A stretch of DNA of 63,455 nucleotides, filler included, from Globobulimina sp. (lineage: Eukaryota), in assembly GCA_003354225.1 (NCBI GenBank). It is 16 parts of 16 records of this genome, joined end to end, with 100 filler letters (N's around TTAATTAATTAA, not from the genome) between each part and the next. Parts side by side here need not be neighbours in the genome. Positions count along the whole stretch, not along the records: positions 59,587 to 63,455 come from PIVH01001965.1; 15 more parts are not named here. One strand, written 5' to 3'. The translations under genes were made by a program, and so were the position numbers. Every line of letters starts with the position of its first letter. Position 1 is the stretch's first letter. Of this stretch, positions 55,774 through 63,455 are shown piece by piece. The notes beneath the pieces are model-generated. The model did not search any database and was not told where the DNA came from. It saw nothing but the letters and a program-made list of their open reading frames with translations.

Positions 55774-58700
55774 TCAATATTGATGATTACAAACTTTCAT
55801 AAAAGGATTATGTTTTTTTGGTTTCGGGTCAATATAATGTTTAGACTCTTGTTGTTTTTTGGGGTTACATATTTTAATCATTTCTTGAATAAAAAAATCA
55901 ATATAAAATCCTAAATCATACCATTTCCATCTACATTGTGTCCATTGCAAATATACTTTTGGTTCTTGGAACATTGCATCCAATTTAAAAGCAACATGTT
56001 CCAAAGATTTCAAAATATTACAAATTGTGTGCTTCTCATTTATGGAATGATAAGAAATATATTTATATGCCCGACTTAACAATAAATGGGTCTCAACCAT
56101 CCGTGCTATTAATTGGCCAATAAATTCCATATCCAATTTCTTTGGTATTTTCTCATTATTTTTCTCCGTCGATAATATTACATTTTTCAGTAAAATCCTT
56201 AATTTTTTTGCTTTTTTTAAATATTTTTCTTGTAAAAATATGGATGCTCTTTCATGCTGAATCGCCTTTTTTGTCCTTGATTTTCGCAAAACTTCTTTTT
56301 TCATTTTTTCGTCGTGCTGCTCTCGAATCTGTTTTCTTTGTTGCACCACATTTTTATACGCATTCACATATCGTTCCGTTGGCTCTTCCATCACAAATGT
56401 TTGCTTTTTTGTATTTGTAACATAGCCTTGCTTACATTCATAGAAATCATCGTGTGTCGCGGAGTTAAATTCTTTCAAACAAACCCAACAAAAGTGATAC
56501 TTGCATTTCCTGCAATGGATATGGTTGCAACCACCATTCTTCTCCCACCATGTCTTACATTTTGGGCATTCTTTCGTCTTCACCAACATTGTATATTTTT
56601 GTCCTTCAAATGTTGGCAAATCTGGCAACAAAGGATCGCTTATTTTTAATTTGGTTTTCAAGCTCAAACTCCAAATTTTATTCTCAACACATTTTAAGGG
56701 CCAATGGAATTTATCAACGCACGACGTGCAAAGTGGTATGCCACAATTACAAACCAACAAAGCGATGTCACGTTTTGTTTTTATAGCAGAACAACCTAAT
56801 TATACAGTCAGTGAGTCAGTGAGTCATTGTGTCAAACTCAAAAAAAAAAAACTTTAGTAACATACATTGCGGATTTGGACAGAATTTCCAGTCTTTACGT
56901 GTTTCCAAAAACGAATTTTGCAAAAACTGTCTATACCGTTTATACGTGATATTATCAGATAATATATGAATCAATGAGTGATATAGATACTTTTTACATT
57001 TATATTGTGGACATTTTATAACCGTAATTCCATTATCAATTTGATTAAAAATATAATTCGATAGACACTCAATACAAATGATATGCGAACAATGAATTCT
57101 TATCCCATTAAACATTGATTTCAGCTCCAAACAAATCGGACATTCAAATTCTAAAATCACAGGAAACGATAATTTAATCTCTTCTGTGCCAGTACCAGTT
57201 ACATAAATATCTTGATTGGTCCGTGTGTGTTGTATTTGTTTATCGATGGAAGTGTGTGAAGTCCATAAATTCTCTGCTAATTTTGCCATTGCTTGAGACT
57301 TATTACATTTCCACTTCGCGCTCATTCTTTTAATTAATGCAAAAATAGTCTCATCAATTTCCCATGAACTGTAACATTGTGTCATTAGCTGTTCTTTGCG
57401 TATCATCTCTTTTTGTTTCTGTTTCTGTTCAATCTGTTTTATACGCAATAATTCATCGCAACAATTGCGGAGTTTACGTATTTTCCGTTTTACCGGCGAC
57501 TGTGTGTTATAATTGCTGTCACAGTTTGTCTGTATACCTTTTGCTTGCGAGGTTTTCGTGATGGCATAATTACAATTATTGCTGCTAAACGATAATGTGC
57601 CATCATGTATGCCTAAATTATTCAGTTTCAACTGCATATTTTCCGGATATTCGTTCCAATTTCGATTTATATCCTTCCAGTACCACACATATATTTTGCC
57701 CTCCATTCCATGCATTTTCCCACCATTTTCGAATTCGGCAATTATTACATTTTTGTCATTCTTATCAATTAAACCTAAGGCGGTGCGCAATTCAATATAT
57801 TTATGTGTCTTATTTGTCGTTTCTTGATTCACATATCGTTCTTCATATTTCTCCACCCATTCTTTGCCAAATTGCACCATATCAAATAAATGTTGCTCGC
57901 CAATGGAATCCTGCGCCATTCCATGTAATTTTATTTGCAAATCAAACCATATTTCATTATTGGTGGCAAAATCAGTGGGTCCATTGAAGTAAATGGATGA
58001 TTTTATGCAGGATTTGAGCGGATAATCAATGGGGCACAAAAAAGTGAGGTACAATTTGCCATATTTATGTGTTTGCGTTGTCAATAAACACAGTTCAATG
58101 ATTACTGGATAACAATGCGAATGAATGACAATCTCATCGTGTTCTGCACTAAATATTGATTTAAGAGTATTTATTTCATCCGTTAATAACGACACACATT
58201 CTTTATAGATTAATATTTCTTCGTTTAGTACGTCTTCAATCATACGCATTGTCACTGTGTTTTTAGCATTGTCCAGGTGTTTAATATCATCATCGGCATC
58301 GCAATCAATTAAATTATAGCATTCTTCAATTGTTATGCATTTATCTTGGCCAAAATGTAGAGCTTTTCTTGACACATTGCTTATCGATATGGATAAAATA
58401 CTTTTTTCAATCAAATATAAAATATCCTTGGATAAAATTCTATTTTCCATCAATTTATTTAATATTTGGGTGAAATTACTGAGTGGATTGCAATTGCTAT
58501 GTGATAATTGTATTAATATTGCTTTTTGAATTGATGGACGTATACTTGCTTGAAATATACGTATTTCTTGTTCAATATCGATGATTTCATCACTGACAGC
58601 CTCATTGTCGCGTTTTTTCTCATCATTGTTATGCTGGCCATGGTTATGCTGTTCTGACTGTTGTTTAAATGACTCGACAAATCGTAGCAATGGAGTGGAT

Positions 58701-58891
58701 AATAAATGATGGTATTCTGAGTTTAATAATATTTTTTTAATCTCCTTGGCATCGGATGCATTTAATATGCCCTGTTGCCATGCTACTTGAATGTTTGGTA
58801 AATAAATGGAGATATCCGTATCATTTGTATTGCAAGTTTCAAGAGCTGTCATTGGATGACACCAAAAAATAACAGTTTTGTAAGTCAACAT
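55774..58891 (-). CDS. RWD-WWE-RBR (Ariadne-like) E3 ubiquitin ligase, two exons
   Basis: RWD (DEINTLKSIF, PIDYP, LFDMV); WWE (WYWKD..WNEYP..QTN..VKR); RING1 CPIC..CSHIICIEC; IBR across intron 56796-56865; RING2 CPKC..EKNGGCNHIHC..CWVC. Confidence 0.88.
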
Positions 58892-60379
58892 TTGGGAAAG
58901 TGAACCCTTCCATTTAGTTTTGTTAATGAAATAAATTAGAAAGCAAGCAATATATTGTTAACCATTTCATAATTCACATTCTTTGCTGATTTTAATAAAA
59001 ATATGATTGAATAAATTCAAACGATTTACATGAAATATGATTTAAATGGAATATGCCATCCAAGCCAGTATTATCATCACCATCATCATCTAAACCAACA
59101 TCAGCATCATTATTCTTATTTTGTATCTTCTTTTCATCATATAATAATGCAGTAAATTTATCCACTGATTCCATGGTAAATTTTATTTTCAATACCAACC
59201 TCAAATTTAATACATTTCAGTCTTAAACATTTGCTTTTCTTTATAAGACGCCATGCTCACAGCTATACACTACACATAACACTTTGTTTTCGGAAACACG
59301 TTACTGAGCAACACGTTACTGAGCAACATGGATAGAATATTAATTTTTTTTTGATCGATTTATTTGAAGCAAGAAATTTATTAAATTTGTTATTGACAAC
59401 ATAGCATGTTCTGGTAATCCAGGCTGGCACGGATGGCCCAGCGTAGGTGTTGGGAGCGTCACATTAAAATTATGTTTTAGTTGAAANNNNNNNNNNNNNN
59501 NNNNNNNNNNNNNNNNNNNNNNNNNNNNNNTTAATTAATTAANNNNNNNNNNNNNNNNNNNNNNNNNNNNNNNNNNNNNNNNNNNNAAATTAATCCATAA
59601 CGGATTGGACACGCTGTGGTGCACTCCGCTGAGTCCTTTTATTAAATCAAATTCGTTGTCGAATTCCCACACAATATTATTATTCACATCTTCTCCGTTA
59701 TCCGCCGTATTGATCATTGGTGAGTCCATCACAGTAAACTTACATAGATTCAATATGTATTATTTCGTCATCAAAGTATGTATTTATTACATCATCTGTT
59801 TTTAATTGTATCATTGTATACATTGGTAGAATGAGTTCATAGGTGATAGGAGGACTGGATTATAGCGTTGGTTTGAGATCTGTGTAGGACCTAGGCCATC
59901 CTTAATTGCAATAGACTAGTTTGAAGGAGAGTAGCGGTCGCATGTCTAAGCATCATTAATTGCAATATCATGGTACCTAGGTCCTAGGTCTCGATTTATA
60001 TTGCGCAATATAAGAACAACCCCTATGAGAATGAGATCATAATCGAATGCGCCGATTACAGCTGCAGATAAAAAAAGGAGTTTATTCCGATGAAGATGAG
60101 GCAGATATAAAAAAAGGAAAAAGAAAATAAAAGAAAGAAAAGGGAGCATATTCAGTTTATTTGGAACAGAAACAACACTACAAATTAACCACAATGTTTG
60201 TAGCCTTTGTACAATCATAATTTACCTCATATTGTGACAGACTGACAGCTATCGATAAATATCATCTCGATCCCGATGAATCTATATCTTGTCATCGATA
60301 ATTATAAGGAAATACACAACTTTGTATTCCATATCCTTTCAGCACTGCTTTATGATTATAAAAATACATATATACTAGT

Positions 60380-60990
60380 ATTGTACCAAAACAATCTGTG
60401 TTGGGATTACTAATATAACACATTGACCTCCATGTTTATGCCCACATTGATAATCCCAACATAAACATAATGTTCTTTCATTTCCTTTCCTTTTAATCCA
60501 CTTTTTTTATCACTCAATGTGCACCAAATCGGAATATGACCAAATAATATAACATTATTCTTTAATTCCTCTATTTCAATCAATTTATTTTCTAGCCACC
60601 TGGTATCATAATATTAATTCCTGTAAAACATGCTTGGATTTATTAAGCCACAATTTGAGCAATTCCATGTTTTGCTGTTTGTCTGCGATTTCCAATTACA
60701 TTTTGAAAAAACGGGAATCTCGGAATAAAATCATTATTTTCTTTCTTCCCTTCAATACAATGCTCATTCAATGGATGGTCCATTACATTCTCTATTAATT
60801 TCAATGGATCTGATGCTTCAAACTTTAATTTATTGAATTCTGATAATGTATGTTTCATACATTTTGCAGATGTTTTTGTTTTTGTTTTTTTATTTAAACC
60901 ATCAATAATATCTCCTAAACAAATAGCTAACAATGGATTATCGGTTTCATTCATTCCATGTCTTAATAGCGTTTTTGACGATGCTTGATC
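60380..60990 (-). pseudogene. Decayed Mn-dependent ADP-ribose/CDP-alcohol diphosphatase-like metallophosphoesterase
   Basis: Motifs in order but spread over frames with stops: NAIKTWNE / CLGDIIDG / VIGN / WLENKL..VILFGHIP / LCWDY..GHKHGG; GAAT duplication frameshift near 60950; N-terminal DxQY motif absent. Confidence 0.65.
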
Positions 60991-61346
60991 CGTTTCTGTA
61001 TCTTAGATGCTGGTGCTACGATGCAAGATTCTTATTCGCTTGAAAAGTCATATGAACTCGATCTAGCAATAAGTGTTAATGATACAGTGTGGAAGATATT
61101 GCATAAAGAATCGTCTCCAGGTGAGTCAGAGTTGTATTATTTTGATAAGACTATTAAATGTATACCGCGGGAAGATCCTTGTCCTCTGCAAATAACCACT
61201 TCAATCAATGTAACATTCTCTATTTGTGGTTGAAAGCATGCTTTATTATTAAACGTACGAGTTCGCAAAATAGACCATTTAATTTACAAAGAATGCAATG
61301 TAAAAAATACTAAAAATGTTTCTTTACTACAAAATACAATTAAACT

Positions 61347-63455
61347 CTAACTGCCTCTCAACATAATAGCGGTATGCAAAGTCATTCCAGTTTCAACGCC
61401 GACGTCTTTCATTGTTTGTGCATCCCATAATAATTTCCCTTTAAAAATAACTCTCAATTGTTCCGCACAAATCCCCTCCAGTTCTTGTATTAATAATTTT
61501 ACTTCTTTCACTGTAAATGTCTCTTCAATACCAACTTGACATTTATTCCCTTCCAATGATTTAATAAATACTTTCATTGAACCTGATCCCGTTGTTTTCA
61601 TTTTATTATCATAATGATGTTTTTTCTCTATTTCAGAATGACCGGGACATATATCTTTTGTATCACCATCAGAGCTCTGTTTGTCATACTTATCACAACT
61701 TGAACATCCTCCACATACTCCATATGGCCCACCTCCACCATTATAATGATACACATGTTTATCGTTTTCATCTGTTGATAAATACTCCAATTCACGCAAA
61801 TTACAGATTCGTTTGCGAACATGTTTGCCCGTTGGAGTAAATCTGCCACTTAATTGACGAATAACTTCATAAACCAAATCATTATGTTGCAAAGTGTTCC
61901 GTGCGCACATAACCCGAACTATCGCAGCATCCTTTTTATTATATATGATCACAGCAAACACATATCAACATTAAAACAAATAGCATACCATCTGATGTCT
62001 CCGTGACCTGTATCTTGACTCTGTTTGTGACCGACAAATTGCACAATGACCTTTGGATTTATCTGTTACTTTGATATTTAATGTAGGAATTGCTATTTTG
62101 GCAGCGGGATGTGAATATTTTGGATTTATTTGAAATTTATGCGAATCCTCCACTTGTTTTGTATTTGGCGCTTTTCGCAACACTTTTATTCTTGGATGAG
62201 CCATAGACATTGTTGCAGCATATAAATCCCCCGAAGGTATATTTGTGTCATCTTTTATCTGTTTCCAAGTTAATGTGTTTTGATGATTAAATAGTAATAA
62301 TACAATCATTTGATACGTAGACACGACCAATATTTTCCTGGTTGTTGTATTAAATATTATTGCTATATCCGCTGTGCCTTTATCCATTTGATAATTTAAT
62401 CTCCGGCCACTGAACCTATTTACATAAAATTGGGAAAATATATCTGATACAGATGCAATATCTGCTGGTTTTTTCACTGGTTCTATTGACGCTGTTGGCC
62501 ATGCTCCAGTTGTACACACTGACACATTTATTTCCATTTCCAATGAGTCATTATATTCTTTCTTAAAATTTACCATTAACTCTTTCGATCGTTGTATATC
62601 TTTAAACATATCTTCTAATTTGCTTATCCAATGATAACCAGTTTCATTTTTTAATTTACCGATCATTGATCTTTCAGATTGCTCACTTTCTGATAAATTC
62701 TGTAATAATCGCGATGCTAAATATTGCTGATAGTCGCGTTCAAAAATATCTTTATCCCGAATATAAGCATATAGCATAGCAATATGATCCATTGTAGTGT
62801 CTAAATCCGATGTTGTGACTTTTGTGCCTTTTTTAAGGATATCATTTGCAAATCTTGCTAACAATGCGGATGTGTAATATTCTTTGTTTATAGCTTCTTC
62901 AAATGATTCCTTTAGTGTTCTATAAAATATTTCTTCATTTTGTAATTCTGATTTTATGACATTTGAAAATATTTTATGAAGCCGAATTAACAAATGTATC
63001 AATTTATGTTCATTATTGATATCGCATTCATATTTCTTACTGTCATTGTCATCAACATTATAATTATTTTTATTTTGCAAATATTTTTGTTTTGCAATCA
63101 TTTCCGTAAATAATAATTTTAAATGTGGTATGTTACAAATTATGCTGTTTTCAATCATTTTATCATAGAACTTGTCAATAAGTTGTTTGACGGTATCAAG
63201 TTGAGATATTGTATAATTTTGTGATTTTAAAAATTGTTTTAATTTTTTTTTGGGTTTAACCAATTCATCAATAATGTTCCAACAATGCGTTTCAAACAAA
63301 GCATTAGCAGTTTCTACATTTTTTGGGCATGTAGAAAATATTGAAAATCGAGGATCTGAGGTAAATCTGTTGTCATTTAAAATATCGCGCCATTTTGTTT
63401 TTGAATGAAATATTGGCTGTTCACAATTTAGTGATAAATCCGTCAATAATTGATT
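61347..63455 (-). CDS. Chimeric FF-repeat / cullin C-terminal half / Cys-rich linker / ubiquitin-NEDD8-like fusion protein, 5' partial
   Basis: KDIFERDYQQYLASRLL, KLEDMFKDI, VSVCTTGAWP, VSTYQMIVLLLFN; 57-nt intron 61932-61988 gives RRHQMDAAIVRVMCAR; 76-aa Ubl at 61350-61577 ends LRGS-stop; frame open to the window end. Confidence 0.9.

Follow-up and report, generated by a model that had tools for sequence, protein, structure and literature searches.

A Globobulimina cullin gene with a C-terminal ubiquitin-like domain and a cysteine at the neddylation acceptor position

All cullin-RING ligases (CRLs) are controlled by one main switch, the reversible attachment of NEDD8 to an invariant lysine, which is also a drug target. 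The stretch of Globobulimina sp. DNA analyzed here (63,455 nucleotides, nt, from assembly GCA_003354225.1; "the window" below means this whole stretch) raises the question of how a cullin might work when that lysine is gone and a ubiquitin-like (Ubl) domain is built into the protein itself. By homology, the window carries the 3' two-thirds of a CUL3/CUL4-like cullin gene, which lies on the minus strand and extends past the window end at 63455. Its WHB domain has a cysteine at the acceptor position, and the same exon continues through a linker into a ubiquitin-family domain that lacks a terminal Gly-Gly.

Gene structure and the acceptor position

The features of the gene are as follows.

61989-63455, minus strand: exon A, cullin homology region (partial), an unbroken 489-codon frame; the remaining, N-terminal part is cut off by the window end
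61932-61988, minus strand: intron of 57 nt, GTATGC...AAAG (GT..AG), between the codons for ...RRHQM and DAAIVR...
61931-61350, then TAG at 61349-61347, minus strand: exon B, 194 residues, one open frame with WHB, linker, and Ubl
61743-61931, minus strand: WHB / Cullin_Nedd8 domain (Pfam PF10557), exon B residues 1-63
61905-61907 (read 61907-61905), minus strand: Cys codon TGC at the acceptor Lys position, from the sequence, the alignment of relatives, and contigs
61578-61742, minus strand: linker, 55 residues (exon B 64-118), predicted disordered
61695-61715, minus strand: C-x-G-C-x-x-C motif (C73, G75, C76, C79), invariant against the tails of two related fusions, P0007 and P0062
61350-61577, minus strand: ubiquitin-family domain (beta-grasp), 76 residues (exon B 119-194) with Arg-Gly-Ser as the last three
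61347-61352, minus strand: AGT (Ser in place of ubiquitin residue 76) and the stop codon TAG, from the sequence and the X1 contig

Exon A matches the Pfam Cullin family (PF00888) over profile positions 251-620, with E 1e-84 and 286 bits against a cutoff of 33.2, and the solved chains closest to it are CUL4A (4e-53) and CUL3 (1e-51). Within it the segment VSVCTTGAWP, presumably the Rbx-binding strand, aligns with the corresponding CUL4A segment. Residues 1-57 of exon B match Cullin_Nedd8 (PF10557; E 1.2e-16, 61 bits against a cutoff of 36.9), and both of the family features expected of a cullin, PF00888 and PF10557, are present. Joined by a correct splice, the two exons make up 683 open codons. 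No second copy was found in the window by tblastn with both exons and with P0178, a related Ubl fragment described below, and an Rfam scan of the whole window gave no matches.

The intron is removed exactly, with 61930 joined to 61988, in three contigs, one from each of the runs X1, X6, and X8, which belong to three studies. The X1 contig spans from 62892 through the splice joint and the entire Ubl to 61303, and exon A is covered by X1 and X6 contigs with no additional joints. An X2 contig retains the 57-nt intron, with no differences to the window. The simplest reading is that the spliced contigs of X1, X6, and X8 are transcript assemblies. Since WHB, linker, and Ubl all lie on exon B, the fusion is independent of any splice model, and a mis-join of neighboring genes is ruled out by the single uninterrupted exon; the WHB-Ubl junction is also covered by the spliced contigs from the three studies.

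To collect relatives, 1.84 billion representatives were scored with the cullin core, and the best 150 were kept. The nearest, P0003, is an ordinary 766-residue cullin from Nonionella stella with 67% identity over 350 residues; its 90% cluster also includes a Bolivina argentea protein, and the other close matches are likewise foraminiferal. The window WHB, DAAIVRVMCARNTLQH, is identical to that of canonical P0003 at 40 of 63 residues by hand count. The mark of neddylation-regulated cullins is an acceptor Lys in a ...VR-I/V-MK... helix, and here that residue is Cys. Among the 115 of the best 150 representatives that aligned to the window WHB at E <= 1e-3, the acceptor column holds Lys in 114, a gap in one, and Cys in none; the remaining 35 gave no WHB alignment at this threshold, and some of them may be fragments.

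TGC differs from the lysine codons AAA and AAG at all three positions. The codon is spanned by the X2 contig with no differences, by an X1 contig (61303-61930) with 5 differences to the window, and by an X6 contig (61354-61930) with 20; these differences were all listed and none falls at 61905-61907. TGC is thus kept even in contigs that are 1-4% diverged from the window. A three-position change from a Lys codon, together with the agreement of independent contigs, rules out a sequencing error at this codon.

The ubiquitin-like domain

The Pfam Ubiquitin family (PF00240) matches exon B residues 121-189 with E 8.5e-18 and 64 bits against a cutoff of 25.4. Residues 119-193 align without gaps to ubiquitin 1-75 (HMMER), and on this alignment 30 of 76 residues (39%) are identical to ubiquitin. 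The domain retains ubiquitin L8, I36, I44, K48, H68, L73, R74, and G75, with Met at position 72 and Ser at 76. The C-terminal Gly-Gly of conjugatable modifiers is absent, the frame ending Arg-Gly-Ser-stop. The X1 contig, which reaches 61303, leaves the Ser and stop codons (AGT-TAG) intact; the X6 contig begins at 61354, short of both.

AlphaFold2 was run on exon B from a three-row alignment (mean pLDDT 60.8, pTM 0.43), and the relative placement of the domains in the model is uninformative. The Ubl is predicted as a beta-grasp with block pLDDT of 74-91, and Foldseek matches this part of the model to ubiquitin chains at a target TM of 0.9-0.97. The linker is predicted to be disordered, with pLDDT below 50 across exon B residues 52-116. 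A complex prediction for the WHB (residues 1-64) and the Ubl (117-194), run without controls, scored 0.00 and 0.01, where the mark is 0.34, and is likewise uninformative on whether the two touch.

The first-pass annotation of this locus had proposed the 57-nt intron, the fusion of WHB and Ubl, the exchange of the acceptor Lys for Cys, a ubiquitin-family domain with about 30 of 76 residues identical to ubiquitin (the eight named residues kept, M72, and G76S), and a C-terminus lacking di-Gly. All of these are borne out by the contigs, the relatives' WHB column, the HMMER alignment, and the reading of the last codons given above.

Related fusions, history, and surroundings of the gene

A local search with the window Ubl found a C-terminal Ubl in two of the 150 best representatives, P0007 (Bolivina argentea, 719 residues, EukProt) and P0062 (390 residues, on a 2367-bp contig). 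Both contain Pfam Cullin, Cullin_Nedd8, and ubiquitin domains, the combination for which the first-pass annotation had suggested checking protist proteomes. The tails of the three proteins have in common the linker CxGCxxC and the Ubl motifs K-S/Q-L-N/E-G-N-K and K-G-K-L-L-x-D, and in a three-sequence tail alignment C73, G75, C76, C79, G128, N129, K130, and K164-L168 are invariant. Identity of the two sisters to the window is 34-38% in the Ubl and 51-59% in the cullin core. On this architecture, the window gene is a member of a small lineage-specific family characterized by a WHB domain, a disordered CxGCxxC linker, and a C-terminal Ubl.

The sisters differ from the window at both reactive ends. 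Each retains the acceptor Lys (VLKENK and VMKERK, respectively), and their tails end ...TTGCLGG or ...TTGCFGG, with nothing after the di-Gly. The idea that loss of the Lys would co-vary with fusion does not hold in this simple form, since P0007 and P0062 are fused yet keep it. Lys loss does co-occur with loss of the di-Gly, in one sequence vs. two that have both; counting the tail of P0178, the comparison is one against three. Because the sisters keep both the Lys and a free Gly-Gly, the fusion appears to predate Lys loss and not to have arisen as a replacement for neddylation, and the window copy would have lost both reactive ends from an older cullin-Ubl fusion.

A profile of the three tails was also searched against 5.8 billion clusters. 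It yielded no additional fused protein: of 6139 longer candidates, 23 were at E <= 0.001, and among these only P0007 and P0062 have a ubiquitin domain. A search of longer proteins with the WHB and linker (residues 1-118) gave 37 candidates, none at E <= 0.001, and of 524 pattern matches to the three-tail alignment in metagenome contigs, none was confirmed by tblastn. Two Ubl-only fragments, P0178 and P0179, were found among shorter proteins with the three-tail profile. P0178, from an ENA contig of 2114 bp, is identical to the window Ubl at 49 of 76 residues (64%), shares its AIMLRG tail and then continues with Gly-Cys (...AIMLRGG-C), and has a 21-residue in-frame insert that resembles an unspliced intron of about 63 nt. 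It may come from a separate Ubl modifier of foraminifera, or from the tail of another cullin.

The first-pass annotation had treated the domain as a ubiquitin/NEDD8-like one standing in for NEDD8, an interpretation that these comparisons qualify. Position 72 is Ala in NEDD8 and Arg in ubiquitin. Because the window domain has Met there, unlike either, and is 39% identical to ubiquitin and 64% to the P0178 fragment, it does not seem to be specifically NEDD8-like. A protein atlas look-up gave generic ubiquitin-like clusters only, with a NEDD8-like cluster first at rank 20, and all 60 of the best solved-chain matches shown for the domain belong to ubiquitin, in its plain, fused, or engineered forms.

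UBL domains that serve for docking are known from Rad23/Dsk2-type shuttles and from parkin, and the window Ubl could likewise be an integral docking domain, recruiting the ligase and its substrates to proteasome receptors or ubiquitin-binding proteins. The Lys-to-Cys change would then merely mark a cullin outside NEDD8 control, with no functional link to the Ubl. The domain resembles integral UBL domains in lacking a di-Gly and in its position behind a long disordered linker; by the ubiquitin alignment and the earlier NEDD8 count it is no nearer NEDD8 than ubiquitin; it retains the Ile44 patch, used by most ubiquitin receptors; and the atlas clusters it retrieves are generic. The sisters and P0178, however, end in Gly-Gly or Gly-Gly-Cys, a hallmark of conjugatable modifiers rather than of integral UBL domains, and a docking role would require two very rare losses to be unrelated, those of a Lys found at 114 of 114 occupied positions and of a di-Gly found in the three other tails of this Ubl type. 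This explanation is considered doubtful, though by no means far-fetched.

A few residues after the acceptor position the sisters carry His-His-Cys, where the window carries Gln-His-Asn. The linker CxGCxxC and the sisters' His-His-Cys, just past the acceptor helix, could together make up a candidate metal site.

The window Cys might itself have a function, either as a thioester acceptor for NEDD8 or ubiquitin or as a metal or disulfide ligand stapling the linker and Ubl to the WHB through CxGCxxC. It is retained in diverged contigs, the three invariant linker cysteines want a fourth ligand for a tetrahedral site, and the difference between His-His-Cys in the sisters and Gln-His-Asn in the window suggests that a Cys ligand could have moved. 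Against this, the linker is predicted to be disordered, the sisters have Lys at the acceptor position, and to our knowledge there is no precedent for thioester acceptance on a cullin WHB. A functional Cys of this kind is thought very unlikely.

A tree was made from the cullin core and WHB, with the linker and Ubl excluded. Its 41 rows (the window and 40 proteins) were hand-picked, comprising the highest-ranked longer matches and CUL3/CUL4-type outgroups and no other matches. The tree places the window in a starred clade of 10 rows with P0003/P0174, P0175, P0005, P0018, P0008, P0014, and the pair P0007 and P0062. The three fusions are apart in a free quick tree, and the best tree in which they are constrained together is 14.8 log-likelihood units better (approximately unbiased, AU, test p = 0.84). 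A single origin of the fusion is compatible with these results and is not rejected, although with such long branches this is no proof; it is favored because the linker motif is shared. Independent fusions in the window and the sisters are disfavored by the common linker motif and the clade test.

Sequence divergence bears on whether the gene is maintained. Over 192 codons of exon B, the window and the X6 contig differ at 20 places: 8 of the changes are synonymous (118.3 sites) and 12 non-synonymous (457.7 sites). The ratio of non-synonymous to synonymous changes per site (pN/pS) is ~0.39, and the synonymous excess has a binomial p of 0.037; with few sites, this points to purifying selection on exon B. 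The X6 contigs (~4% diverged) have three 6-nt insertions relative to the window, at 61663, 62633, and 63040, all in frame, with the one at 61663 (in one X6 contig) falling within the linker.

The first 138 residues of exon A (63042-63455, minus strand) are Asn/Lys-rich and do not align to P0003, whose match begins at residue 139. Evolution seems to be much faster in the adaptor-binding half of this cullin than in its C-terminal half.

Some of these features would also fit a decaying or dominant-negative paralogue, either drifting or acting as a decoy for Rbx, adaptors, or CSN (the COP9 signalosome) without ligase activity. Both reactive residues are gone; the window branch is long (0.57, vs. 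0.01 for canonical P0003 and P0174); the Cullin_Nedd8 score is 61 bits, vs. 97 in a canonical relative; and the 138 residues upstream of the conserved core are unaligned to the nearest relative. A gene in decay is nevertheless hard to reconcile with 683 open codons and a correct splice, spliced contigs from three studies, a pN/pS of ~0.39 with indels only in multiples of three, a cullin core that still shares 67% of its residues with canonical P0003 over a length of 350, and a Ubl that is confidently folded in silico. Decay or a decoy role is judged quite unlikely.

The cullin gene is on a separate piece of the window (59587-63455) because of an assembly join at 59487-59586, which consists of an N-run, TTAATTAATTAA, and a second N-run; its adjacency to the genes at lower coordinates is for the same reason unestablished. 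Across this join, at 56816-58957 on the minus strand, is a 713-codon open frame with an RWD domain (E 1.1e-6), a weak WWE match, a RING, and the start of an IBR. Its domains suggest an RBR ubiquitin ligase resembling RNF14, and the frame at 55774-56799 is its probable continuation.

Possible mode of action and known systems

On ordinary cullins, NEDD8 on the WHB Lys frees the WHB and the Rbx RING, and the Ile36/Leu71/Leu73 and Ile44 surfaces of NEDD8 build the activated ligase. E1 activation requires a terminal Gly-Gly, and NEDD8 is removed by CSN. Ubiquitin-like proteins with N-terminal extensions are generally still activated by E1, and a tethered Ubl that kept its di-Gly, such as those of the sisters, could therefore be conjugatable, possibly to the Lys of its own or a partner cullin. 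The window copy would be a form that lost both reactive ends together: it should not be neddylated on the canonical Lys, and its Ubl should not be activated by E1.

The explanation tentatively preferred, at somewhat less than an even chance, is that the window gene encodes a neddylation-independent cullin scaffold whose tethered Ubl acts in cis. Acting non-covalently, the Ubl would take over the part that conjugated NEDD8 plays on ordinary cullins: it would release the WHB and the Rbx RING, and its Ile44 and Ile36 surfaces would be available to E2~Ub or RBR partners. One consequence would be that CSN could not switch this cullin off by deconjugation. The joint loss of Lys and Gly-Gly is what would be expected if the two residues worked together, although with so few proteins it is only a lead.

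Several points weigh against a cis-acting scaffold. The sisters, with a tethered Ubl, keep Lys and di-Gly, so that tethering alone does not replace neddylation. The Ubl is about as distant from ubiquitin (39%) as, by the earlier hand count, from NEDD8, with Met at position 72, and its nearest relatives, P0178 and P0179, are a separate Ubl type. Contact of the Ubl with WHB, Rbx, or E2 is a proposal only. The selection estimate rests on 20 differences, just five of them in the Ubl (three synonymous, two non-synonymous). Only the C-terminal part of the protein is seen here, the N-terminal adaptor-binding part being outside the window. Finally, the kinds of the runs are unrecorded, and the spliced contigs might, at least in principle, derive from processed copies in DNA.

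The free di-Gly of the sisters makes self- or cross-conjugation of the cullin conceivable, and this leads to a further possibility. In a self-conjugating family, the Gly-Gly of the ancestral form, as in Bolivina, would be activated by E1 and joined to a WHB Lys, either its own or that of a partner cullin, giving a covalently closed or covalently dimerized, permanently "neddylated" ligase. The window copy, having lost both ends, would retain its Ubl as a purely non-covalent mimic that escapes the NEDD8/CSN cycle. Such a history is regarded as unlikely.

The first-pass annotation had gone as far as suggesting a genetically pre-neddylated, CSN-resistant ligase. The architecture, the Cys, and the loss of di-Gly hold; the suggestion itself is qualified by the sister fusions that keep Lys and Gly-Gly, and by a Ubl that does not seem to be specifically NEDD8-like. 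The ligase function is still presumed.

Fusions of ubiquitin-family genes are themselves common in this part of the eukaryotic tree. According to the passages retrieved from two papers, rhizarian genomes have many ubiquitin fusions, some with ubiquitin C-terminal to its partner (PMC6332867, PMC11354881). In the same passages, these fusions involve ubiquitin itself, mostly N-terminal, with actin, ribosomal proteins, zinc RING fingers, and NiSOD among the partners (PMC6332867, PMC11354881). The word "cullin" does not occur in a survey of Bigelowiella and Guillardia ubiquitin fusions (PMC6332867); C-terminal ubiquitin fusions in Rhizaria are noted elsewhere, with no cullin partner in the passages found (PMC11354881), and the passages found in a review of engineered Ubl fusions include no cullin-NEDD8 fusion (PMC9703124). 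The window differs from the rhizarian ubiquitin fusions in having a diverged Ubl, and in that the partner is the very protein that normally receives a Ubl. It is a striking addition to the rhizarian tendency to fuse ubiquitin-family genes to others.

No description of a natural cullin-Ubl fusion was found in the parts of the literature covered by full-text searches. Within that literature, the unfamiliarity of the architecture remarked on in the first-pass annotation stands, and a natural cullin with a permanently attached, non-transferable Ubl and a lost acceptor Lys seems to be undescribed. An unremarked database entry of a fused cullin may exist; P0007 itself is public in EukProt.

One small family contains three states: Lys without a Ubl in ordinary cullins, Lys with a tethered Ubl that has a free di-Gly in the sister fusions, and no Lys with a dead-ended Ubl in the window copy. 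A comparison of the three could reveal which NEDD8 effects depend on the isopeptide geometry, whether tethering a Ubl is able to activate a cullin, and how a ligase behaves outside the CSN/CAND1 cycle.

Among known systems, the window cullin is like NEDD8-modified CRLs (human CUL1-, CUL4A-, or CUL3-RBX1) in its cullin homology region, WHB acceptor helix, and attached ubiquitin-family domain with Ile44 and Ile36. It is unlike them in that the Ubl is peptide-bonded through a 55-residue linker to the WHB C-terminus, with no isopeptide on a Lys, and in that the Cys and Gly-Ser end should preclude both E1/E2 attachment and CSN-type removal. In P0007 and P0062, Cullin, Cullin_Nedd8, CxGCxxC linker, and Ubl follow one another as in the window, and the Ubl motifs are shared, but both proteins keep the Lys and have a TTGC-L/F-GG tail where the window has AIMLRGS. 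Two more distant cases are instructive. APC2 is a cullin-homology protein that works without neddylation and has no Ubl, and parkin is an RBR ligase with an N-terminal auto-inhibitory UBL that regulates its own E3 in cis. Each of these matches one half of the design seen in the window; neither combines both.

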